Below, piece after piece: positions 35,393 through 54,059 of a stretch of 64,000 nt of DNA. Every line of letters starts with the position of its first letter. The first letter of the stretch is position 1. The notes beneath the pieces were generated by a model. That model did no database searches. It had not been told where the DNA came from and was given only the letters and a program-made list of their open reading frames with translations. A program made the translations under genes and the position numbers. Source of the DNA: Candidatus Sericytochromatia bacterium (lineage in GTDB: Bacteria > Cyanobacteriota > Sericytochromatia > S15B-MN24 > UBA4093); contig JAKFBU010000027.1 in NCBI GenBank assembly GCA_036676985.1, positions 233,354-297,353 of the forward strand, in the 5' to 3' direction.

Positions 35393-38300
35393 ATGAGCCA
35401 GCTTGTCCACCTGCAAACCCACTCCGTCTACTCGCTCCGCCGCAGCCTGCTCGGGATCGACGCCCTGGTGGCGGCCGTCGCCGAACGCGGACACCGGGCC
35501 GTCGCCCTCACGGACGTCGACGGCGTCTATGGCATGGTCCCCTTCGTCAAGGCCGCCCGCTCTGCCGGCGTGAAGCCCATCGTCGGCGCGGAGCTGACGC
35601 TCGACGTACCGGGCCTCGTGGCCGACAAGCCCCACCGCGTCACCCTCCTCGCTCGCGACGCCCGGGGCTACTCCAACCTCTCGCGGCTCGTCAGCCGCTT
35701 CCACCTGACGGACCGTGTGGGCGTCGGGCTCGCCGACCTCGCCGCCCATGCCCGGGGGCTCACGCTCCTGACCGGCGGCCAGCACGGTGCGCTTCCCCGC
35801 ATGCAGGCGACCATGGGGCCTGATGCCGCCCTGAAGCTCCTGGGCGACTGGAAGGACGCCTTCGGCCCCGAGCACTGCCACGTGCAGCTCGGGCCCTGGT
35901 GGCCCGCCTCACGCCTCCTCGAGCTCGCCGACAAGGCGGGCCTCGGCGTGGTCGCGGCCCAGGAGGCATGCTACCTCCGGCCCGAGGAGGAGGAGACCTG
36001 GAAGCTCTTGCAGGCGGGCCACGGCCTGGGCCACCCGGCGCCGGGGCCGCGCCACCTCGCGACCGACGCGGAGCTCCTCAGGGCCTGGAAGGAGGTCCCC
36101 CGGGCGATCGCGGCCATGGGGGCGATCGCCGAGACCTGCCGTTACGAGCCCGTGTTCGGCGTGCCGCGCCTGCCCGAGTACCGGGGCATCGAGGGGCTCT
36201 CGAACCCGGACTACCTGCGTAGGCTCTGCGCGGAGGGCCTCGAGCGCCGCTACGCGGGCCGCCCCCTCCACGCCGAGGCAAGAGAGCGCATGCAGTACGA
36301 GCTCTCCGTCATCGAGCAGATGGGCTTCGTGGACTACTTCCTCATCGCCTGGGACATCGTGCGCTTCGCCCGGAGCCGGGGGATCCCCTACATCCCCCGC
36401 GGGAGCGCGGCGGGCAGCCTCGTCCTCCACCTCTTGGACGTGACCTCCATCTGCCCTTTGGAGCACACGCTCTGCTTCGAGCGCTTCCTGCATGTGGAGC
36501 GCAAGGCCCTGCCCGACATCGACATGGACTTCGACTGGGAGCGCCGGGACGAGCTCATCGACTACTGCTTCTCGATCTACGGCGAGGACCATGTGGCCCG
36601 CATCGCCACCCACCAGCACCACGGCCCGCGCGGGGCCATTCGCCTGGCGGGTGCGGCCCATGGCCTCGAAGAGGAGACGGTGGGCAAGCTCGCCCGCAAG
36701 ATGCCCTGGTCGGGGCCGGTCGCGAGCGCTCCGGATATCCAGGGTCTGCCCCTGCACAAGGAGCCCTACAAGAGCCTGATCGCCACCGCCGACTCCTTCC
36801 AGGGGCTGCCCGATCACCTGAGCCTGCACCCCTGCGGAATCGTCATCAGCCGCGAGCCCCTCACCGAGGTCGTCCCCCTCGAGGCCTCGGCCATGGGGCC
36901 CATCGTCACTCAGTTCGAGATGCACGGGGTCGAGGAGGTGGGCCTCCTCAAGATGGACCTCCTGTGCAACCGCAACCTACGCATCCTTGCGGACGTGGTG
37001 GCCCTGGTCGAACAAAGGCACGGCATCCGCCTGGTGCCCGACGAGCTCCCTCTGGACGACGCGCGGGCCTTCGAGCTCATCCGCACCGGGCGCACGCTCG
37101 GCATCTACCAGCTCGAGTCGGGCGGCGTGCAGGGTCTCCTGCGCCAGTTCCTGCCGACGCATGTCGAGGACATCACGGCCATCACGAGCCTCTACCGCCC
37201 GGGGCCCATCGACGGGGGCATCACGCCCCGCTACGTGGCCAGGCGCCACGGCCAGGAGCCCGTCACCTACCCGGACCCGTGCCTCGAGGGGGTCTTGAAG
37301 CACACCTACGGCCTCATCCTCTTCCAGGAGCAGTGCCTCCAGGTGACCTCGGTGTACGCCGGCATGAGCATGGGCGCCTCGGACAACCTGCGCCGGGGGA
37401 TCGCCAAGCGCATCCGCCCGGAGGTGGAGCGCATCAAGGCCCCCTTCTTCGAGGGTGCTGCACGGCTGGGGCGCGACCCCAGGTGCACCGAGGAGGTCTG
37501 GCGGTTGCTCGAGAGCTTCGCGGGCTACGGCTTCGTCAAGGCGCACGCGGCGTCGTGCGCGTCCTTGGCCGTGCGCGAGGCCTACATCAAGGCGCGCTGG
37601 CCCGTCGAGTACCTCGCCTGCGTGCTCTCCACGGGCATGGGCTACTACCCGGCCCGGGTGTACGTCGAGGACGCCCGCCACTTCGGCGCCGAGATCGCCC
37701 TGCCGTGCGTGAACCGCTCGGGGGCGACCTACACCGTCGAGGGCGAGAACGTCCTGCGCGTCGGCCTCTCTTACCTGCATGGCATCGGCCCGGCCGGGGT
37801 GCGCGCGATCCTGGACGCCCGCGAGGCCGGGCCCTTCACGAGCCTCGCGGATCTCAAGCACCGCACGGGCCTCGCGCGCCCGGAACTGGAGACCTTGATC
37901 CGGCTGGGCGCCTGCGAGTGCTTCGGCCTGAGCCGCCCGGTCCTGTTGCGGGAGCTCTCGGGGCTCGGCAAGAGCACCCCACCGCCCGCCTCGCAGCTGA
38001 GGCTCTTCACGGAGGTGGACCGTCCGGCTCCCAAGGTGCCCGATCACGGGGACTACCCGCTCGCCATGCGGCAGTCCATCGAGCGGGAGATGCTGGGGTT
38101 CACGGTCACGGTCCAGCCCCTGCCCCGGGAGGTGGGCAGCGTCTCCTTCGCCGAGGCCAAGGCGCTGCCGCGCAAGGCCCGGGTGAGCGTGGTGGCGGAG
38201 GTCGTCTCGCGCTTCGGCCACCGGACCAAGAAGGGCGAGCGCATGTCCTTCCTCACGCTCTCGGACGGCGTGGAGCACTGCCAGGCCGTGCTGTTCCCGG

Positions 38301-38437
38301 AGGCCTACCGCCGGCTGTCCGCGGCCTCGCGGCGGGGACCCGCCATGTTCTCGGGCGTGGTCGAGCAGGATCGCGGGGAGTTCCTGTTGGTCGTCAACGA
38401 GATCGAGGCCCTGAGCGATCGCTGGGGGGTGTCCTGA
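35393..38437 (+). CDS. dnaE2: DNA polymerase III alpha subunit, DnaE2-like (error-prone)
   Basis: PHP domain, RGSAAGS, PDIDMD, KMDLL, YGFVKAHA, OB fold; SOS-boxed and coupled to dinB. Confidence 0.85.
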   Translation: MSQLVHLQTHSVYSLRRSLLGIDALVAAVAERGHRAVALTDVDGVYGMVPFVKAARSAGVKPIVGAELTLDVPGLVADKPHRVTLLARDARGYSNLSRLVSRFHLTDRVGVGLADLAAHARGLTLLTGGQHGALPRMQATMGPDAALKLLGDWKDAFGPEHCHVQLGPWWPASRLLELADKAGLGVVAAQEACYLRPEEEETWKLLQAGHGLGHPAPGPRHLATDAELLRAWKEVPRAIAAMGAIAETCRYEPVFGVPRLPEYRGIEGLSNPDYLRRLCAEGLERRYAGRPLHAEARERMQYELSVIEQMGFVDYFLIAWDIVRFARSRGIPYIPRGSAAGSLVLHLLDVTSICPLEHTLCFERFLHVERKALPDIDMDFDWERRDELIDYCFSIYGEDHVARIATHQHHGPRGAIRLAGAAHGLEEETVGKLARKMPWSGPVASAPDIQGLPLHKEPYKSLIATADSFQGLPDHLSLHPCGIVISREPLTEVVPLEASAMGPIVTQFEMHGVEEVGLLKMDLLCNRNLRILADVVALVEQRHGIRLVPDELPLDDARAFELIRTGRTLGIYQLESGGVQGLLRQFLPTHVEDITAITSLYRPGPIDGGITPRYVARRHGQEPVTYPDPCLEGVLKHTYGLILFQEQCLQVTSVYAGMSMGASDNLRRGIAKRIRPEVERIKAPFFEGAARLGRDPRCTEEVWRLLESFAGYGFVKAHAASCASLAVREAYIKARWPVEYLACVLSTGMGYYPARVYVEDARHFGAEIALPCVNRSGATYTVEGENVLRVGLSYLHGIGPAGVRAILDAREAGPFTSLADLKHRTGLARPELETLIRLGACECFGLSRPVLLRELSGLGKSTPPPASQLRLFTEVDRPAPKVPDHGDYPLAMRQSIEREMLGFTVTVQPLPREVGSVSFAEAKALPRKARVSVVAEVVSRFGHRTKKGERMSFLTLSDGVEHCQAVLFPEAYRRLSAASRRGPAMFSGVVEQDRGEFLLVVNEIEALSDRWGVS

Positions 38438-39622: not shown

Positions 39623-39889
39623 ATGCACGAGTTGAAGCAGCGACCGTTCGAGCTCCTCATGCTCCTGGTCTCGTTCCACGAGCGCCGACGCCAGCCGCCC
39701 TCCCTGCGGGAGCTGGCGAAGCTCTTGGGGATAGGATCCGTCTCGACGGTGCACCACCACGTGACGGTGCTCGAGCGTGAGGGCTACCTTGAGCGCCTGC
39801 CCACGCAGAACCGGGCCATCCGGCTGACGGACAAGGCCTTCGAGCACTGCCGGCAGTCGCTAAGGACCAGACGCACGGGCCAACGCTAG
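39623..39889 (+). CDS. LexA DNA-binding-domain-only protein
   Basis: PPSLRELAKLLGIGSVSTVHHHVTVLEREGYL..RAIRL; no Ala-Gly site or S24 peptidase domain. Confidence 0.8.
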   Translation: MHELKQRPFELLMLLVSFHERRRQPPSLRELAKLLGIGSVSTVHHHVTVLEREGYLERLPTQNRAIRLTDKAFEHCRQSLRTRRTGQR

Positions 39890-41482: not shown

Positions 41483-41583
41483 CCCGTCGATTCGGGGTCT
41501 CGAGCACCCGCCGCTGCGACAATCGTGGGCATTTGGGGTTTAAAGCAGATAGCCGTTCGCACCGCCCCCCCCCCAGAGGCCCC

Positions 41584-44565
41584 ATGCACGAATCAACCCT
41601 TTCCACCTCCTCCGTCACCTCGCCGACCGGGCGCGTGACGCTCGTCTTCACGGACGTCCAGGGCTCCACCAACCTCTGGGAGCGCCACACCGACGCCATG
41701 CGCGCCGCCCTGACGCTGCACAACCAGGAGCTCCGGCAGTTGCTCGCCCAGAGCGGCGGCTACGAGGTGAAGACCGAGGGCGACGCCTTCATGCTCGCCT
41801 TCACCAGCCCCGATGCCGCCCTGCACTGGTGTCTCGCGGCCCAGGAGACCCTGCTCGGGCTCGACTGGCCCCACGAGCTCTTGAGCCACGAGGACGCCTG
41901 CGAGGTGCACCGCCCGGACGGCACCCTCCTCTTCCGGGGCTTGCGGGTGCGCATGGGCCTCCACACCGGCGAGCCCGAATGCCGCCCGGACCCCGTGACC
42001 GGCCGCATGGACTACTTCGGCCCCATGGTCAACCGTGCCGCCCGCATCGCGAGCGCGGCCCACGGCGGCCAGATCGTGGTCGGATCCGACGCCTGGAAGG
42101 CACTCGAGACCCGGCTCGCGGAGCTGGGATCCCCCGAGGCCCGCGAGCTCGGAACCTTCCACTTCAAGGGCCTGCTCGAGCCAGAAGCCCTCGTGCAACT
42201 GCTGCCGAGGACGCTCGGCGATCGCGCCTTCCCGCCTCCCAAGGCGCAGGACGTCAAGAAGACCAACCTGGTCCCGAATCCCAGCCGCTTCATCGGACGC
42301 GCGAACGACCTGCGCCGGCTGCAGGACCTCTTCGGCGAGGGGTCCCGCCTCGTCACCCTGCTCGGCCCCGGCGGCACGGGCAAGACCCGGCTCTCCCAGC
42401 AGTTCGCCGTCGAGAACCCGGGCGACTTCGAGGGGGGCGCGTGGTTCTGCGATCTGACCGAGGCCACCACGGTCGAGAGCATCTGCGAGGCCGTCGCCGC
42501 CGTCCTGGACATCCCCCTGACCGTGGCCCGAACCGACGCCGACATGGTGCGCCGGATCGGAGACGCGCTCGCCGGCCGCTCGCGAACGCTCGTCATCCTC
42601 GACAACTTCGAGCAGCTGGTCGAGCAGGCCGCAGCCACCGTCGGCCAGTGGCTGAAGCAGGCCCCGCAGGGGGTCTTTCTCGTCAACTCGCGCGAGCTCC
42701 TGCGTCTGCCGGGCGAGGTGGCCTACGAGCTTTCCCCGCTCGGCCTGCCGAACGACCCGGCGGACATCGCGGGATCGGAGGCCGTGCAGCTCTTCGTGGA
42801 CCGCGTGCGCGCCGTCCGACAAGACTACGAACTCGCCGACAGCGAGGCCGCAACCGTCGCCGAGATCGTGCGCCAGCTGGACGGCATCCCGCTCGCCATC
42901 GAGCTCGCCGCGGCCCGCATGAGCGTGCTCACCGCCGCCAAGCTGCTCGAGCGCCTTCCCAGGCGCTTCGACCTGCTCTCGAGCGGCAGGCGGGATGCCA
43001 GCGCGCGCCAGGCGACCCTCAAGGGCCTCATCGACTGGTCCTGGAACCTCCTGCAGCCCTGGGAGCAGGCCGCGCTGATGCAGTGCTCCGTCTTCCGGGG
43101 CGGCTTCACCCTCGAGGCCGCCGAGGCAGTCCTGGACCTCTCGGACTACCCCGACGCCCCCTGGACCATGGACGTGATCCAGAGCCTGCGCGAGAAATCG
43201 CTGCTCAAGACCCAGCCCTGCTCTCTGGAGCCGCGCTTCGGCATGTACCTGAGCATCTGGGACTACGCGCACCTGAAGCTGGAGGCAATGGGACCGGCAG
43301 ACGCCGTCCGTGACCGCCATGCGGCTTACTACCTGGACATGGCGCAGCATGCCAGGGGCATCCTGACCGACCCCAAGACGCTCCCGCGGCTGGCCGTCGA
43401 GCGCGAAAACTTCCACGAGATCCATGCCCGGGCCAGCGCCATCTCCCCGCCCACCGCCGAGAGCGTCAACCGCACTCTGCAGGCCGCCCTGGCGCTCGAC
43501 CCCGTCCAAACCGTCCGGGGGCCCTTCGGCCCGCACTTCCAGCTCCTGGACCATGCCCTGCGCCATGCCGAGCTGCCGGGCGTCTCGGCTGCCCTGCGGG
43601 GACGGGCCCTGGATGCTCGGGGACGTTGTAACCGCTTGCTCGGCAAGATGGCCGAAAGCCTCCAGGATCATCAACAGGCGCTCGCGCTCGCCACCGAAAC
43701 CGGCGACATGGAGCTCGAAGCCATCAGCAGCCAGATGATCGGACTCATCCATCAGAACACGGGCGCCCTGACAGAGGCCAGACAGTGCTACGACCGGGCC
43801 CTCGCCATCGCCCAGACGCTACCCGTCAACCCCTACGAAGGCCGCATCATGATGGCCATGGGCTACCTGCACCTCGAAGAGGGGCAGCCCGAAAAGGCCC
43901 TTCCTATCCTCATCCGATCCGTCGAACTGCTGCATGCCATAGGAGACGAGCGCTTCGAGGGCATTGCCCGCAGCCACCAGGGCTATGTCCTGCTCGAATT
44001 GGGACGCAACGACGAAGCCTACAAGTGCTTCGAGGCCGCGATCCAGCTCTGCCGCAAGGTGGGCGATCGCCGCTTCGAGGGGATCATCTACGGCACCTAC
44101 GGTGATCAGGCCTTCCTCGAATGGCGCCTGGACGATGCCCTCCTCCACTACGAGCGGAGCCTCGCCATGGTCCGGGAGGTGGGCGAGCTCCGGTTCGAGA
44201 AGCTGTACATGTGTCGCAAGGGAGGCGTACTGGCCGCCATGGATCAGCACGCCGAAGCCGAACGGGTCCTGGAACGCGTCGGCGCGAACCTGTCGGAGGC
44301 CTTCGACCCGGTCAACCGGACCGTGATGGCCCTCCATGCCGCCCAGCTGCAGCTGGCCCGCGCCCGAGCCGCCACGGCCGCCGGGGGGTACGACGTCGGG
44401 CCATGGCTCGCGGACATCCAGACGCTGCTCACGGAGTGCGAGGAGCCCGGCCCGGCCACCCCGGAGCATCCGAACGGCCAACCCTCCAAGGTCTCGCAGT
44501 CCGACGAGATCCGGCTCTCGGTGCGCATGCTGCGCCGCGACCTCGCGCGGCCGGACTCCAAGTAG
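41584..44565 (+). CDS. Adenylate/guanylate cyclase + NB-ARC ATPase + TPR (STAND) protein
   Basis: FTDVQGST, EGDAF, VNRAARI; GPGGTGKT; LDNFE; DGIPLAIELAA; C-terminal TPRs. Confidence 0.9.
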   Translation: MHESTLSTSSVTSPTGRVTLVFTDVQGSTNLWERHTDAMRAALTLHNQELRQLLAQSGGYEVKTEGDAFMLAFTSPDAALHWCLAAQETLLGLDWPHELLSHEDACEVHRPDGTLLFRGLRVRMGLHTGEPECRPDPVTGRMDYFGPMVNRAARIASAAHGGQIVVGSDAWKALETRLAELGSPEARELGTFHFKGLLEPEALVQLLPRTLGDRAFPPPKAQDVKKTNLVPNPSRFIGRANDLRRLQDLFGEGSRLVTLLGPGGTGKTRLSQQFAVENPGDFEGGAWFCDLTEATTVESICEAVAAVLDIPLTVARTDADMVRRIGDALAGRSRTLVILDNFEQLVEQAAATVGQWLKQAPQGVFLVNSRELLRLPGEVAYELSPLGLPNDPADIAGSEAVQLFVDRVRAVRQDYELADSEAATVAEIVRQLDGIPLAIELAAARMSVLTAAKLLERLPRRFDLLSSGRRDASARQATLKGLIDWSWNLLQPWEQAALMQCSVFRGGFTLEAAEAVLDLSDYPDAPWTMDVIQSLREKSLLKTQPCSLEPRFGMYLSIWDYAHLKLEAMGPADAVRDRHAAYYLDMAQHARGILTDPKTLPRLAVERENFHEIHARASAISPPTAESVNRTLQAALALDPVQTVRGPFGPHFQLLDHALRHAELPGVSAALRGRALDARGRCNRLLGKMAESLQDHQQALALATETGDMELEAISSQMIGLIHQNTGALTEARQCYDRALAIAQTLPVNPYEGRIMMAMGYLHLEEGQPEKALPILIRSVELLHAIGDERFEGIARSHQGYVLLELGRNDEAYKCFEAAIQLCRKVGDRRFEGIIYGTYGDQAFLEWRLDDALLHYERSLAMVREVGELRFEKLYMCRKGGVLAAMDQHAEAERVLERVGANLSEAFDPVNRTVMALHAAQLQLARARAATAAGGYDVGPWLADIQTLLTECEEPGPATPEHPNGQPSKVSQSDEIRLSVRMLRRDLARPDSK

Positions 44566-46028: not shown

Positions 46029-46508
46029 CTAGATTCCATTCTCGACCACCGGAAACCCGGCCTCCTTCCAGCCGGCGATGCCGCCCTGGAGGAGAAGCAT
46101 GTTCGTGTTCCCGTAAACCTGATTGACCGCTTGCGCCACACGGGCGCTACTCGCCTCGTCCACTCAGGCACAGTACAGGACGATGGTCTGATCTCGGCTC
46201 AACGTGGGGCCCCACACCTGATAGTCGGCACCCGGCAACGAGATCGCGCCCGCGATGTGCAGGAGGTCATAGGAAGCGCGGCCCCGGACGTCCGCGATCA
46301 CGATGTTCTCCCCCTGCGCGATCCGAGTCTGCACCTGCTGGGGCGTGATCCGCGTGAGGGAGAAGACGCCGGGCGCGGGTTTGGCTGCTGACTGGGGCGG
46401 TTCGGTGCTGCCGCCCGGCGTCGTGGTCGGTGGAGCGTTCGGGGGGGTCGTGGTGCAGCCCCACAGGACGATGGAAGATAGGGCAATGAATAGGGCTAGG
46501 CGTCGCAT
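46029..46508 (-). CDS. Rhodanese-domain lipoprotein with in-frame UGA (probable selenocysteine, CxU motif)
   Basis: Lipobox LWGC; DVRG..Y..HIAGA; IVLYCA-UGA-VDEASSAR continuing in frame to LQGGIAGWKEAGFPV and TAG. Confidence 0.85.
46122..46163 (-). promoter_or_regulatory. Candidate bacterial SECIS element
   Basis: GCGCC-CGUGU-GGCGC hairpin starting 16 nt after the UGA, with G near the start of the loop. Confidence 0.55.
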
Positions 46509-46632
46509 GGCCGTCTCCTGTTCGAAGGCATGGTTCCTTGCTCTACGAACGATAATGGACTTCCCGAACCGGGGACACGTCCAGTTTTCCAGGAGATTTT
46601 CGGCCGCCCTGTCAGGCTCCGGAGATGCCCGG

Positions 46633-47469: not shown

Positions 47470-47621
47470 AAATCCCTCCATTGTTGGGCGTCATCTTTCT
47501 CTATGACAACCGAGAGATCCGAGAAGTTCCCCGGGCCGTACGACCGGCACGGACCAGCAGCATCGGCGATGGCCCGATCAGCAAACTTGCGGATATCCGG
47601 ATAATCACATATGCTTGGCTG

Positions 47622-48005
47622 ATGAAATCGCACGATCTACCCAGGAAGCCGCACCCCGTCGAACTCACGGCGGTCATCAAGACCTTCAAGGCCTTGTCGG
47701 ATGCCACTCGCCTGCGGATCGTCCTCCTGCTTGTCCACGGTGAACAGTCGGTTGGGGACCTCGTCGCCAGCCTCGACCTGCCCCAGAGCACCGTCTCGAG
47801 ACACCTGGCCTTGCTCAGGGCCGCAGAGCTCGTGGAAACGCGGCGCGTGGGCAGTCATATTCATTACCGGCTCATCAACGCGCACCTGGGTGACCTGGTG
47901 CTTCAGGCGTTCTCTCACGCCGAACACGAGCGCCTCGGTCTTCCGGACCATGGGTCGAGCGCGGGGCCACTTACCAACCACCACCATCCTGCCGAAAGTT
48001 GTTGA
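47622..48005 (+). CDS. Metal-sensing ArsR/SmtB repressor
   Basis: FKALSDATRL, QSTVSRHL; alpha5-like NAH...HAEH; His-rich tail; ATAT..ATAT dyad upstream. Confidence 0.88.
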   Translation: MKSHDLPRKPHPVELTAVIKTFKALSDATRLRIVLLLVHGEQSVGDLVASLDLPQSTVSRHLALLRAAELVETRRVGSHIHYRLINAHLGDLVLQAFSHAEHERLGLPDHGSSAGPLTNHHHPAESC

Positions 48006-48007
48006 GG

Positions 48008-49309
48008 ATGCTTCAACCGATATCTCCACACCGCATGACCGTTGCTCGTTCGACGTCCTGCCCCCCCGCCGTGGCGCGACTCCTTCAGGGGACGCTCGTC
48101 GTTCAGCTGATCGGGCTCCTGGCCGTCTCCCCATGCGGAGCACAATCGACCACCTGGAGCGAGGACCAAGCAGTCGCCGCGTTTCTCGCTCGGAGTCCGC
48201 TGGTTGCTGCCGCCAAGCAGCAGGTCCAGGTGTCCGGTGCCGACGTTATCGGCGCCAGCATCAGAGCCAACCCCGTGCTGGAGGTAGCCCGAGAGCAGGT
48301 GTTCCCGGCCGCAGGATCGAGCGAAGAAAACCGCTTAGGCCTCCAGGTGCCGATCTCGCTGCCAGGGAAGCGTGATCGGCGGGTCGCCATCGCCCAGTCC
48401 GGGGTGGCGATCGCTCAGGCCAGGGTCCAGGAGCGCCTCCAGGAGCTGACCCTCGAGTTCCGTTCGGTGTATGGCGAGGCCTACGCCGCTGCCGCCCGCG
48501 GCGAGGCCCTGGCAGCAGACCTGGCCGGGCTGCGCCGCATCGAACGGGTCATCGAGGCCCGTGCCAAGGCGGGGGAGAGCGCCGGCTACGATCTCATCCG
48601 GGTGCGTCTCGCGCGCTCCGCGGCCGAAGCCAGACTGGCCTCGGAGCGAGCAGAAGCCGAGCGCCAACGGGCTCGCCTTGCCGGCTTGGCGGATCTGGCG
48701 GCGACCGGCTCCCTCAAACTCGGCACTCCGACTCCTTTGCCCTCGGAGGACGACCTGATCACCTACGCCTTGGCGCACCGTTCCGAACTCCTCACCGTGC
48801 GCGCCGAACGTGCACGGGCCGAGCAGGCGATCGACCTGGCCCAGCAACACCGTTGGCCGGACCCCGCCGTTGCGGTCGGCCTCAAGCACACCAGTGAGCC
48901 GACCTCGCAGGGACTGGGCTACACCCTCGGTCTCACATGGCCGCTTCCCTTCTTCGATCGGGCCCAGGGCGAAGCGGCCCGAGCCAGCGCGGAGCGCGAG
49001 CGCCTGGGGCTCCAGGAGGCGGCGATTGTCGCCCGGCTACGCAGCGACGTTCCGGCCGCCCGCAAGGCCCTTCAGCAACGGTTGGACGCCCGGGCGCGCT
49101 TCGAGCGAGACGCCCTCGCGCGGCTGCCCGAGATGACGCGCATTGCCGAAACCGCCTACACGGAAGGGGACCAAGGCATCGTCTTGCTGCTGGATGCAAG
49201 CCAAGCCGCCCTAGACACCCGGCTCCAGGCCATCGACCTGGCGCTTTCCGTCCATTCCGCCCAGCTCGAACTCGAGCGCCAGGTTGGCGCTCCGCTCACC
49301 CGCCCGTAA
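48008..49309 (+). CDS. czcC: TolC/CzcC outer-membrane factor
   Basis: OEP repeats (ANPVLE, LPFFDRAQG); first structural gene of the RND operon; start uncertain. Confidence 0.8.
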   Translation: MLQPISPHRMTVARSTSCPPAVARLLQGTLVVQLIGLLAVSPCGAQSTTWSEDQAVAAFLARSPLVAAAKQQVQVSGADVIGASIRANPVLEVAREQVFPAAGSSEENRLGLQVPISLPGKRDRRVAIAQSGVAIAQARVQERLQELTLEFRSVYGEAYAAAARGEALAADLAGLRRIERVIEARAKAGESAGYDLIRVRLARSAAEARLASERAEAERQRARLAGLADLAATGSLKLGTPTPLPSEDDLITYALAHRSELLTVRAERARAEQAIDLAQQHRWPDPAVAVGLKHTSEPTSQGLGYTLGLTWPLPFFDRAQGEAARASAERERLGLQEAAIVARLRSDVPAARKALQQRLDARARFERDALARLPEMTRIAETAYTEGDQGIVLLLDASQAALDTRLQAIDLALSVHSAQLELERQVGAPLTRP

Positions 49310-49319
49310 AGGAACCAAG

Positions 49320-50897
49320 ATGAAGCGCCTGTCGATCGTCCTTCTCGCCTCGTCCCTCCTCGTCCTCGCCGGTTGCCGCCCGCAAGCCGAGTCGTCGCAT
49401 GAGCAGACGGGACACGAGCACGCCCAGCCGGCCACCGAGCTGCCGGTAGAGGCCGTCACCCTTTACACCCCCAAGAGCGAGCTGTTCGCGGAGCACCGCA
49501 CCTTCGTCGTGGGCGAGGAGGCGAAGCTCGCCGCTCATATCACGGACCTGCGCGATTGGTCGCCCGTGACCGAGGGGCGCATGGAGGCCGTCCTGATCGA
49601 TGCCAAGGGGCGCGAGACCGTGTTCCCCGTGGACGGCGTACTGCGACCCGGAATCTTCCAACCGATCATCAAGCCGAGCGTGGCAGGGGAGTACGAGCTG
49701 CTGCTCCGGCTTACGTCACCCCGACTGTCGGACACCATCCGGGCGGGCAAGGTGACGGTCCATCCGGACGCGAAGGCGGCTCTGGCCACCGCGACCGAGG
49801 AGGACGCCTCCCCCGAGGAAATCAGCTTCCTCAAGGAGCAGCAGTGGAAGATCGGCTTCATGACCCGACCCGCGGCCATCGGAAGCGTCCAGGAAGGCAC
49901 GACCCTCCAGGGCGTCGTCACCGCAGCGGGTGGTCATGACGTGGCCATCACCTCTCCGGCGGACGGTCGCCTCGTCGTGGGCCAAGGCCGCCTGCCGACG
50001 CTGGGATCCGAGGTCCGAGCCGGCGAGGTGCTCGCCGTCCTGACGCCCTTCGAGGGGGCGGACACGGACCGGGTGCTGCTGCGGAAGGAGGTCAAGACGG
50101 CCGAGGCCACCCTCCGTCAGGCCAAGCAGGAGCTGGCGCGCGCCGAGCGCCTGTTCGCGGCGCAAGCGATCCCCGGCAAGCGGATCGACGAGGCAAAGAC
50201 GGCCGTGTCGGTCGCAGAGGCCCAGCTGATGGCCGCCCAGGACCACCTCCAGGCAAAGGAGGCGACCTTGAGAGGGGCAGGCGGCGTCACCGAGGAGAGC
50301 TTCCGGCTCACTGCCCCGATCAGCGGCACGGTGGTCGAGGCCAAGGCGGTGCCGGGCGCTGCCGTGACGAGCGGGGCGCCGCTCTACCGCATTGTCGACC
50401 TGCGCACGGTCTGGGTCGAGGCCCGGGTACCGGAAGCCGACCTCAATCATGTCGCCAAGGCGGGCGGCGCAGAGATCTCCGTCGCGGCGGCGGCCCCCGT
50501 GACCGTCGGCAAGGGGCGCGGTGGGCTGGTGACGGTCGGCAGCGTGCTGGATCCGGTGAACCGGACGGCTCCGGTCGTCTACGCGGTTCCCAACCCGGAC
50601 CGGACCTTCCGCATCGGGATGACGGCCGAGGTGCGGGCCCTCACGGGGCCGACCCACCCCGCTCCGGTGCTCCCCAAGGACGCCGTGGTCGACGACAACG
50701 GGCGGCCCATCGCCTACGTCCAGACGGGCGGAGAGAGCTTCGAGCGACGGGAGCTGAGGCTGGGCGCCAAGCAAGGGGATCTGGTGCAGGTGCTGTCCGG
50801 CATCTCGGCCGGTGAGCGCGTGGTCACGCGCGGTGGCTACGAGATCCGCCTGTCGACCCTGTCCAATGCCGTGCCGGCTCACGGGCACGAGCACTAG
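49320..50897 (+). CDS. czcB: CzcB/CusB membrane fusion protein
   Basis: Lipobox LAGC; APISGTV, GERVVT.G; HGHEH C-terminus. Confidence 0.85.
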   Translation: MKRLSIVLLASSLLVLAGCRPQAESSHEQTGHEHAQPATELPVEAVTLYTPKSELFAEHRTFVVGEEAKLAAHITDLRDWSPVTEGRMEAVLIDAKGRETVFPVDGVLRPGIFQPIIKPSVAGEYELLLRLTSPRLSDTIRAGKVTVHPDAKAALATATEEDASPEEISFLKEQQWKIGFMTRPAAIGSVQEGTTLQGVVTAAGGHDVAITSPADGRLVVGQGRLPTLGSEVRAGEVLAVLTPFEGADTDRVLLRKEVKTAEATLRQAKQELARAERLFAAQAIPGKRIDEAKTAVSVAEAQLMAAQDHLQAKEATLRGAGGVTEESFRLTAPISGTVVEAKAVPGAAVTSGAPLYRIVDLRTVWVEARVPEADLNHVAKAGGAEISVAAAAPVTVGKGRGGLVTVGSVLDPVNRTAPVVYAVPNPDRTFRIGMTAEVRALTGPTHPAPVLPKDAVVDDNGRPIAYVQTGGESFERRELRLGAKQGDLVQVLSGISAGERVVTRGGYEIRLSTLSNAVPAHGHEH

Positions 50898-50906
50898 GAG
50901 GTCGGC

Positions 50907-53900
50907 ATGCTGGATCGCATCATTCAGTGGGCGCTGGGCAACCGCCTTCTGGTCCTGGCCTTAGCGGCCGCCCTCCTCATCGGTGGAACGTGGACGGCCA
51001 GCCGGATGCCGGTGGACGTGTTCCCCGATCTGACGGCTCCGACGGTCACCGTGCTTGCCGAGGCCCATGGCCTCGCTCCCGAGGAAGTCGAGAGCCTGGT
51101 GACCTTCCCGATCGAAACGGCGATGAACGGCGCCACGGGCGTCCGCCGGGTTCGCTCCAGCACGGCCGCGGGCATTTCCGTCGTCTGGGTCGAGTTCGAA
51201 TGGGGCACCGACATCATCCGGGCCCGTCAGCTCGTCAACGAGAAGCTGCAGCTCGCCCAGGCGAACTTGCCCGAGGATCTGCCGCCGCCCGCGCTCGCCC
51301 CGGTGTCGTCCATCATGGGCGAGATCATGTTCATCGGGATGAAGGGCAATGACCGGGCCACGGCCATGGACGTCCGCTCCGCGGCGGACTGGGTCGTGCG
51401 TCGTCGCCTCCTGGCGTTGCCCGGCGTGTCCCAGGTCATTCCCATGGGGGGGGATGTCAAGCAGTTCCAGGTGCTTGTCGATCCCGCCAAGCTCCAGGCC
51501 CGTGGGCTGTCGCTGAGCCAGGTCGCCGACGCCGTGTCGCGATCCAACCGCAACGTCTCGGGGGGCTTTTACGTCTCGGGAGGCCAGGAGTACTTGATCC
51601 GGGGCCTCGGGCGGGTGCAAGGCCCTGAGGACGTGTCGGCGGCCGTGGTCGCGCTGCGCAACGGCGCCGCGGTCCGGGTGGGAGACGTCGCCGAGGTGGG
51701 GGTCGGTCCGGCCCTCAAGCGTGGGGTGGGCTCGCTCAACGGCGAACCCGCGGTCGTGCTCGCCATCCTCAAGCAACCCGACGCCAACACCCTCGAACTG
51801 ACCGAGCGGGTCGACCTGGCGCTGGACGAGATCCAGGCCTCCCTGCCACCGGGCATCACCATCGACCGGCACAACTTCCGACAGTCGGACTTCATCGCGC
51901 GGGCCGTCACCAACGTGGAACACGCTCTGCGGGACGGGGCCATCCTGGTGGCGGTCATCCTCCTGGCCTTCCTGCTCAACGTGCGGGCGACCGTCATCTC
52001 GCTCATCGCCATCCCGCTGTCGCTCCTGGTGGCCATTCTCGCGCTGAAGGCCATGGGCGGCTCCATCAACACCATGACCCTCGGCGGCCTGACCATCGCC
52101 ATCGGCGCCCTGGTGGACGACGCCATCATCGACGTCGAGAACGTCCACCGGCGCCTCCGGGAGAACCGCGCGAAGCCGGAGGCCGAACGCCGCCCCGCCC
52201 TCGCAGTGGTCTTCGACGCCAGCCGCGAGGTGCGCGGCGCCATCTTCTTTGCGACCCTCATCATCATGCTGGTCTTCGTCCCGTTCTTCTTCCTCTCCGG
52301 GGTGGAAGGACGCCTCCTGAAGCCGCTGGGCATCTCGTACCTGGTCGCCATCTTCGCCTCTCTGGTCGTGGCGCTGACCGTGACGCCGGTGGCTTGCTAC
52401 TACTTGCTCGGCCGCGAGCGGGGGCACGGCGAGGAGCGCGAGAGTGTCGTCGTCAGGTCTCTCAAGCGCGCTTACCAACCGCTGCTCGAGAAGGCGCTCG
52501 TCCATCCCCGAACGGTCATCGGCGCCTCGGTCGCCCTCTTGGTCGTCGCGCTCGCGATGGTGCCGTTTCTCGGACGCGCCTTCCTGCCGGAGTTCAACGA
52601 GGGCGCGCTGACCGTGAGTGCGGTGACGCTGCCGGGCACGTCCCTGGAGACGTCGGACGACCTGGGCCGGCGCCTGGAGCAGATCATGCGGTCCTTCCCG
52701 GAGGTCGAGACGACCTCGCGGCGCACCGGTCGGGCCGAGCTCGACGAGCATGCGCAGGGCGTCAACTCCTCCGAGATCGACGTGGTCTACCGGCTGAAGG
52801 ATCGCTCGAAGGAGGCCTTCCAGGACGAGCTTCGCAAGGCCGTGTCGGTCCTGCCGATGAGCATCAGCTTCGGGGGCCCGCTGGCGCACCGGATCGACCA
52901 CATGCTCTCGGGCACCCGCTCGAACATCGCCGTCAAGGTCTTCGGCGAGGATCTCGGGCGTTTGCGCACCATCGGCAAGCAGATCGAGGCGGCCATGCAG
53001 GACGTTCCCGGCGTGGTGGACCTGTCGGTGGAGCAGCAGGTCGAGGTTCCACAGCTGGCCATCCGGTACGACCGCGCGGCCCTGGCTCGCTTCGGGCTGA
53101 CCACCGGGGAGGTGGGCGAAGCCATCGATATGGCCTTCCAGGGCGAGGTCGTCTCGAAGGTGCTGGAAGGGCAGCGGACCTATGACCTGCTGATCCGGTA
53201 CCCGCAGAGCGCGCGACAAGACCTGGCGGCGATCGCCAATACGCTGGTGGCCCTTCCGGAAGGCGGGATGGTCCCGTTGAAGTCGCTCGCGACCCTGACC
53301 CAGGAGCGGGGGCCCAACACCATCTCGCGCGAGAACGTCCAACGCAAGATCGTCGTCTCGGCGAACGTGTCCGGCCGGGATCTGGCCCGCACGGTGGAGG
53401 ATATTCGGGGCGCGATCGCCGCGAAGGTGAGCATGCCGACCGGTTACTACGTGGTCTATGGGGGTCAGATCGAGAGCGCAGATGCCTCCGCGAAGCTCCT
53501 GGGCTGGCTGACCGCGGCGGTGATCGTCGGCATCGCGCTGATCCTCGTGGTCGCGCTCCGGTCCTGGCGGGCGGCCCTCATCGTCATGGCGAACCTGCCG
53601 CTCGCCTTGATCGGCGGGGTGCTAGCGGTCCGGGCCTCGGGGGGCGTGCTCTCGGTGGCCTCGCTGGTGGGGTTCATCACGCTGTTCGGGATCGCAACCC
53701 GCAACGGGCTGATGATGATCACGCACTACCACCACCTCTTGGAGGTGGAGGGCAAGGACTTCCGCACCGCCGTCGTCCAGGGCTCGCTGGAGCGGCTGAG
53801 TCCCATCCTGATGACGGCGCTCACAGCGGGCCTGGCCCTGATCCCCCTGGTGCTGCGAGCGGGTGAACCTGGTAACGAGTTGCAAGCGCCCATGGGCGTG

Positions 53901-54059
53901 GTCATCCTCGGCGGGTTGCTCACCTCGACGTTCCTGAACATGGTGGTCATCCCGGCGCTCTACCTGCAGTTCGGCCGGCCCCGGCCCACCGACGCTACGG
54001 TCGCCTCGTTGGCCGCCGATCACGCGATGGGACAGACCGAGCGACTCCGGTCTTCCTAG
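50907..54059 (+). CDS. czcA: CzcA/CusA heavy-metal RND permease
   Basis: DVFPDL, GALVDDAIIDVEN, FLPEFNEG, RLSPILMT. Confidence 0.92.
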   Translation: MLDRIIQWALGNRLLVLALAAALLIGGTWTASRMPVDVFPDLTAPTVTVLAEAHGLAPEEVESLVTFPIETAMNGATGVRRVRSSTAAGISVVWVEFEWGTDIIRARQLVNEKLQLAQANLPEDLPPPALAPVSSIMGEIMFIGMKGNDRATAMDVRSAADWVVRRRLLALPGVSQVIPMGGDVKQFQVLVDPAKLQARGLSLSQVADAVSRSNRNVSGGFYVSGGQEYLIRGLGRVQGPEDVSAAVVALRNGAAVRVGDVAEVGVGPALKRGVGSLNGEPAVVLAILKQPDANTLELTERVDLALDEIQASLPPGITIDRHNFRQSDFIARAVTNVEHALRDGAILVAVILLAFLLNVRATVISLIAIPLSLLVAILALKAMGGSINTMTLGGLTIAIGALVDDAIIDVENVHRRLRENRAKPEAERRPALAVVFDASREVRGAIFFATLIIMLVFVPFFFLSGVEGRLLKPLGISYLVAIFASLVVALTVTPVACYYLLGRERGHGEERESVVVRSLKRAYQPLLEKALVHPRTVIGASVALLVVALAMVPFLGRAFLPEFNEGALTVSAVTLPGTSLETSDDLGRRLEQIMRSFPEVETTSRRTGRAELDEHAQGVNSSEIDVVYRLKDRSKEAFQDELRKAVSVLPMSISFGGPLAHRIDHMLSGTRSNIAVKVFGEDLGRLRTIGKQIEAAMQDVPGVVDLSVEQQVEVPQLAIRYDRAALARFGLTTGEVGEAIDMAFQGEVVSKVLEGQRTYDLLIRYPQSARQDLAAIANTLVALPEGGMVPLKSLATLTQERGPNTISRENVQRKIVVSANVSGRDLARTVEDIRGAIAAKVSMPTGYYVVYGGQIESADASAKLLGWLTAAVIVGIALILVVALRSWRAALIVMANLPLALIGGVLAVRASGGVLSVASLVGFITLFGIATRNGLMMITHYHHLLEVEGKDFRTAVVQGSLERLSPILMTALTAGLALIPLVLRAGEPGNELQAPMGVVILGGLLTSTFLNMVVIPALYLQFGRPRPTDATVASLAADHAMGQTERLRSS

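Follow-up and report, generated by a model that had tools for sequence, protein, structure and literature searches.

A 2026 review of prokaryotic selenoproteomes distinguishes five forms of rhodanese selenoprotein, one of them 'form 3, NF041203, CxU', and its table agrees with a sequence-only reading of the locus described here, which had stated that CxU rhodanese selenoproteins are known. The words periplasm, lipoprotein and signal peptide are absent from the text of that review; we found no exported CxU rhodanese selenoprotein in those portions of the open-access literature that could be searched, and the term 'LYCAU' gave unrelated word matches only, among the matches listed. In the accessible part of the Geobacter ExtI paper, the rhodanese-like ExtH is nowhere called a selenoprotein. 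A UxU rhodanese-related sulfurtransferase selenoprotein is described from Olavius algarvensis symbionts (Zhang and Gladyshev 2007, PMC1976440).

The present gene lies at positions 46029..46508 on the minus strand of a 64,000-nt contig stretch, referred to as the window, from a Candidatus Sericytochromatia genome of 4.68 Mb in 79 contigs (67% GC). It starts at the ATG at 46508, with a Shine-Dalgarno-like AGGAG 6 nt 5' of it (46515..46519, minus strand). Under translation table 11 the open-reading frame has 114 codons, ends in ...SRDQTIVLYCA and stops at a TGA at 46166-46164 (minus strand), after which the frame stays open for 44 sense codons (VDEASSARVAQAVNQVYGNTNMLLLQGGIAGWKEAGFPVVENGI) up to a TAG at 46031-46029. 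The earlier reading had built its proposal of a selenoprotein on this layout, that is an open-reading frame stopping at YCA, 44 further sense codons and a TAG, together with a GCGCC-CGUGU-GGCGC hairpin 16 nt after the UGA, and all of these are present in the sequence as it described them. Translated through the UGA at codon 115, the gene would encode 159 residues: a putative signal peptide with a lipobox (46455..46508), a Thr/Pro-rich, low-complexity tether (residues 19-49, 46362..46454) and a rhodanese domain (residues 50-157, 46038..46361), the last delimited by Pfam, alignments, an AlphaFold2 model and Foldseek. Pfam PF00581 (Rhodanese) matches residues 55-150, across the UGA, at 49 bits against a gathering threshold of 22.2. 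On comparative sequence evidence, we consider it very probable (roughly 0.88) that this is a genuine selenoprotein gene, mis-truncated at a UGA that is read as Sec; its product would be a diverged, probably exported version of the CxU rhodanese selenoproteins already known, and not a new kind.

The best NCBIfam match of the protein was NF041203 (rhodanese_LYCAU; E 2.9e-19), with a score of 69 bits where the curated cut-off is 115, and none of 27 relatives scored against this model reached the cut-off either, the best attaining 88.9 bits. It resembles NF041203 in the literal LYCAU motif (residues 111-115, L-Y-C-A-U), in having a single rhodanese domain, in the placement of Sec two residues past the canonical Cys and in having Cys-containing homologues, but differs in that its putative lipobox signal peptide and ~30-residue tether fall outside the 126-position profile. 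The Olavius UxU form belongs to the same family and uses the same two loop positions, but here Cys comes first (CxU). UxU does occur among the relatives of the protein, in the same-genus orthologue L033 and in Desulfotignum. The GlpE model NF001195 scored 23.4 bits against a cut-off of 102, placing the protein below the threshold for a classical thiosulfate sulfurtransferase, and the TsoB rhodanese/DsbD fusion model NF045694 scored 22.7 bits against 805; the protein is single-domain, with CxU and not UxxxxU. Sulfane sulfur is carried in the periplasm by small exported rhodanese domains such as E. coli PspE and the Wolinella polysulfide-sulfur transferase Sud. To our knowledge neither of these two is a lipoprotein or has a second Cys or a Sec in its loop, and PspE models gave no match to the protein at E <= 0.01; the two may be regarded as its nearest functional analogy as exported rhodaneses.

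Searches of public protein collections recovered the same apparent truncation in other assemblies. A word-indexed search returned two relatives, P0001 (91% identical) and P0002 (61%), both called at 114 residues and ending ...IVLYCA, as well as a 215-residue relative with YCACPGE. A HMMER search of 1.84 billion representatives yielded 4969 matches with E <= 1e-3, of which 350 had E <= 1e-10. Six of the 25 single-domain relatives that we inspected end exactly before a U (...YCA twice, ...YCS, ...YCT and ...FY twice), bearing out the earlier expectation that such a protein would be mis-called as truncated; those ending in ...FY, P0010 and P0048, stop where a UxU form called short would be expected to. 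One further relative, P0003 (121 aa, 49% identical), leaves the family sequence ~20 residues before the active site (...WGPPWTRSRPLSSTSSLPIA), which looks like a frameshift in the source assembly.

Across 61 related genomes, a six-frame search found 68 matches, spread over 39 of the genomes; 23 of the 68 matches contain the in-frame TGA. We aligned 59 sequences, comprising all 23 TGA forms, numerous Cys forms and a further 12 loci belonging to other phyla. The alignment column of the UGA (46164..46166, minus strand) holds TGA in 31 of the 59 (24 CxU and 7 UxU; 23 from related genomes and 8 from other phyla, all in the same column) and TGC or TGT in 20 (CxC), the remaining eight being ordinary rhodaneses without a second Cys. 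The sequence-only reading had proposed homologues at this column as a check: the 51 CxC-type relatives aligned have TGA (31) or Cys (20) there, and never Trp or Arg. The codon of Cys113 (TGT, 46170..46172, minus strand) is itself TGA in the seven UxU relatives, and Y112, C113 and C/U115 do not vary across a 48-sequence alignment. A same-genus orthologue retains 65% identity across and past the UGA. In the tree, the sister of the protein is the same-genus UxU form (SH-aLRT 96), followed by CxC forms of the same bacterial family. This sister (L033:1501-1809, genome G001, on a contig that ends inside the gene) has TGA at both loop positions, FY-U-A-U-VDE, and since it is the nearest orthologue, the residue at the first loop position has changed between Cys and Sec inside a single genus.

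The distribution of TGA forms follows that of selA. We found selA in 23 of the 61 related genomes, in 13 of the 14 with a TGA form and in 10 of the 47 without one; because these genomes are kin and not independent, this co-occurrence is a pattern and not a statistic. The one TGA-form genome in which selA had no match, G006, is 81% complete. Within the bacterial family of the source genome, selA and Sec forms both occur in genera g1 and g3, while g2 and g4, in which selA was not found, carry CxC forms. CxC versions of the protein take its place in relatives where selA was not found.

Comparison of the Sec forms also bears on the hairpin 3' of the UGA, whose arms lie at 46147-46143 (GCGCC) and 46137-46133 (GGCGC) on the minus strand, starting 16 nt past the UGA. 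The published bSECIS model asks for a loop of 3-9 nt, an upper stem of 4-16 bp, a G at loop position 1 or 2, a UGA-to-loop distance of 16-37 nt and an MFE <= -7.5 kcal/mol (PMC13188914, Fig. 2 legend). The candidate core (46133..46147) has a 5-bp stem, a 5-nt loop CGUGU (G second, then U) and 21 nt from UGA to loop, and a 30-nt hairpin core folds at -9.8 kcal/mol; the claim that it fits bacterial SECIS geometry therefore held for the four published constraints, and the helix covaries across the family. We aligned 57-nt stretches around the UGA from 30 distinct Sec forms without gaps. In helix columns 24-30/36-42, which correspond to the hairpin first described from the single sequence, 85.2% of cells pair, against 30-52% in slid controls, and none of 500 shuffles matched the observed pairing or covariation. 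Both-side changes occur in five of the seven helix pairs (43 cells), many of them stemming from one deep split, between the phylum of the window and Thermodesulfobacteriota, and so representing few independent events. Pairs 24-42, 27-39 and 30-36 link third codon positions, so that the compensation is largely synonymous (for example, AGC GCC ... GCG CTG vs. TCT GCG GCA ... GCC GCA). RNAalifold returned the same family helix (columns 26-31/35-40). In 12 in-register Cys forms, 53.6% of cells pair in the same columns, and 58 of 500 shuffles pair at least as much.

Taken singly, the hairpin of this gene is thermodynamically unremarkable. Its 45-nt fold is no more stable than dinucleotide shuffles (z 0.05) and its energy is not distinct from that of synonymous recodings of this GC-rich gene; the exact 5-bp stem was kept in only 193 of 5000 such recodings. 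The single-sequence MFE structure is a competing hairpin, ACGAGGCG/AGUAG/CGCCCGU (46142-46159, minus strand, about nt 5-24 past the UGA), which overlaps the SECIS stem in the CGCC stretch. We rejected it as a conserved element, as only 41.4% of its cells pair among relatives and no covariation was seen. As sequence comparison goes, the evidence of the UGA column and the helix covariation together is far beyond chance.

The genome encodes what is needed to decode such a codon. The earlier reading implied Sec usage in this lineage and named the machinery as a check, and selA (627 bits), selB (381 bits), selD (387 bits, with an in-frame UGA of its own, SGUASK) and selC, the tRNA-Sec (75 bits), were all found in the genome, each exceeding its curated cut-off. 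Selenoprotein genes number at least ten, four of them CxU rhodaneses. Besides the present gene these are SelD (SGUASK), an FdhA-like molybdopterin enzyme (CARTUHAP), a redoxin (WUGAC) with its own lipobox LVAC, two CMD/AhpD proteins with CxxU (CNYU and CPFU), an AhpC/TSA peroxiredoxin (TPGUT) and three further CxU rhodaneses; the nine genes are located at C26:280471-281394 (L001), C27:48025 (L080), C23:238299 (L079), C38:152168 (L081), C41:74186 (L083), C41:21565 (L082), C19:1140-1487 (L084), C7:53273-53578 (L063) and C56:98799-99092 (L062). Because the scan was conservative and overlooked known cases, there may be more.

The stop usage of the genome is odd for its base composition. At 67% GC, TGA would be expected as the dominant stop, and among 1989 long, clearly coding open-reading frames TAG is the commonest (1000) and TGA the rarest (490, with TAA at 499). 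This scarcity of TGA, and a frame that remains open across the UGA, would suit decoding of the codon as something other than Sec, either by near-cognate read-through (Trp, Cys or Arg) or by a lineage-wide reassignment of TGA. We regard this as very unlikely: RF2 was found at 490 bits, above its cut-off, and as TGA also ends 490 of the 1989 frames it is otherwise an ordinary stop, while in-frame TGAs with coding signal on both sides number only 34 genome-wide. Seven of the 34 are in selenoprotein-type families (two CxU rhodaneses and five Pfam-confirmed), and many of the remainder read, from their sequence context, as gene junctions. Neither form of non-Sec decoding accounts for a TGA column that alternates only with Cys, for a covarying hairpin 3' of it or for the association of TGA forms with selA.

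A pseudogene, in which a Cys codon mutated to TGA and left a dead gene or a truncated 114-residue fragment, is more improbable again. TGA is one base away from TGC and TGT, the public gene calls of P0001 and P0002 end at the TGA, and the hairpin of this gene, considered by itself, is unremarkable in stability. This explanation would however require the same-column 'mutation' in 31 genes, spread over no fewer than 14 related genomes and another phylum, and in four paralogues of one genome that share the TGA, and the frame 3' of the TGA is intact and conserved. Metagenomes point the same way, as the three variants found there downstream of the UGA (46095, 46116 and 46092) are all synonymous third-position changes. 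An error of sequencing or assembly is barely credible. Although the genome is a draft in 79 contigs with an estimated 5% contamination, the site is covered by contigs from the runs of other studies, one of which (X4 record 10, spanning 46055-46201) differs at 46095 and 46116 only and so keeps the TGA, and P0001 and P0002, which derive from other assemblies, also end at this codon. Nor is there much to commend the idea that the gene gives rise to two products, an N-terminal protein of 114 residues and a 44-residue peptide begun at the GTG that adjoins the TGA (46163; listed as a 44-aa open-reading frame, 46029-46163), since neither piece is predicted to be a foldable rhodanese, the codon past the TGA is CCG, ACG or GGG in most relatives and not a start, there is no ribosome-binding site, and the Cys forms are single polypeptides.

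We thus favour decoding of the UGA as Sec. During translation SelB with Sec-tRNA(Sec) would bind the hairpin that starts 16 nt past UGA115, and Sec would be inserted there instead of termination, giving the 159-residue selenoprotein that the comparative evidence predicts.

The N-terminus (MRRLALFIALSSIVLWGC) consists of MRR, 13 hydrophobic residues and the lipobox-like L15-W16-G17-C18, followed by the Thr/Pro-rich stretch. The lipobox consensus is [LVI][ASTVI][GAS]C, and the Trp two residues ahead of the lipobox Cys is atypical. The close relatives P0001, P0002, P0003 and P0010 retain LWGC or LGGC, and 18 of the 25 single-domain relatives, like many same-order Sec forms, have a lipobox-like motif; Thermodesulfobacteriota forms are without a signal peptide. 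A signal peptide ending in the lipobox LWGC suggests that the protein is probably exported, and we propose that it is probably lipidated on Cys18 and held at a membrane by the ~30-residue Thr/Pro-rich tether. The earlier description of the protein as a lipoprotein goes as far as this lipobox-like pattern, and lipidation itself is a prediction from it. An RR pair near the N-terminus (MRRLALF, MRRFLYLL, MSRRRIAL and others) was seen in 7 of 25 relatives checked.

AlphaFold2, supplied with the 48-sequence alignment, modelled the protein with a mean pLDDT of 87, rising to 96-98 over residues 50-157 and falling to ~60-67 over residues 1-40, which include part of the tether. The top Foldseek matches of the model were all rhodanese domains (3gk5, 3nhv, 6mxv and YgaP), and against solved rhodaneses it reached a probability of 1.00 with an rmsd of 1.9-2.9 A over ~105-110 columns at 26-28% identity; the predicted fold is the same as that of YgaP (5hbl, 2mrm), Anabaena Alr3790 (3ilm), BH2092 (3nhv) and TVG0868615 (3gk5). 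In the model a strand (108-112) leads into the loop C113-E118 and then a helix (119-132), and a product ending at Ala114 would be left without helix 119-132, strand 137-140, helix 143-149 and strand 154-156. Cys113, at the end of strand 108-112, occupies the canonical catalytic position in alignments with YgaP and other solved rhodaneses; because the YgaP catalytic Cys aligns with Cys113, Sec115 falls two residues past the canonical Cys. The solved single-domain rhodaneses, in contrast, have one Cys and no Sec.

The active-site loop is also unusual in its charge. The usual rhodanese loop consensus is basic, of the CxxGxR type, and the loops that we saw aligned were basic (YgaP CQAGKR, 1yt8 domain 2 CAGRTRS), whereas here the six residues C113-A-U115-V-D-E are acidic and include no Arg or Lys. 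Cys113 would be the canonical persulfide-carrying cysteine. For the chemistry that follows we see about an even chance that Cys113 and Sec115 form a redox pair through an intraloop selenenylsulfide, the protein serving as a periplasmic sulfane-sulfur/persulfide (or selenium) relay or a thiol oxidoreductase and not as a classical thiosulfate:cyanide sulfurtransferase. A broader and decidedly more tentative suggestion is that the exported, mostly lipoprotein CxC/CxU/UxU rhodaneses might constitute a distinct functional subfamily outside the curated models, devoted to periplasmic selenenylsulfide (or diselenide) redox or to a sulfane-sulfur/selenium relay, with an acidic loop that excludes thiosulfate, and systematically truncated in public annotation.

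The gene neighbourhood was considered as a functional clue and dropped, as it is not conserved among relatives. The neighbours of the gene are a Zn-ribbon protein, a weak Phage_ABA_S match and a membrane protein, and the cluster is divergent from an ArsR regulator and RND efflux operon at 47481-54059 (plus strand), which runs from the ArsR-family regulator to an outer-membrane factor, a CusB/HlyD-type adaptor and an AcrB-type RND pump. In 14 relatives, the flanking regions have nothing in common with this neighbourhood; they carry Tim44-like and esterase, sigma-70 and TPR, NHL propeller or cytochrome c genes. Elsewhere in the window, on the plus strand, are a DNA polymerase III alpha-type gene with PHP, finger and HHH domains (35393-38437) and a small protein with only a LexA DNA-binding domain (39623-39889), which may form an SOS mutagenesis cassette. 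A 1010-residue protein (41533-44565, plus strand) with an N-terminal adenylate/guanylate cyclase followed by AAA/NB-ARC and TPR has a STAND-like architecture.

The picture of Sec decoding is unchanged by this selenoprotein. In public collections the protein and several relatives are entered as 89-118-residue fragments without the C-terminal third of the fold, and the closest curated selenoprotein model would not rescue these fragments because their scores are below its cut-off. The locus adds an exported, membrane-tethered version, as predicted from its N-terminus, to the CxU rhodanese selenoproteins. Across the family, Cys/Sec switching at both loop positions (CxC, CxU and UxU) tracks the presence or absence of selA, even inside one bacterial family, and the switching at both positions argues that both residues are redox-active.
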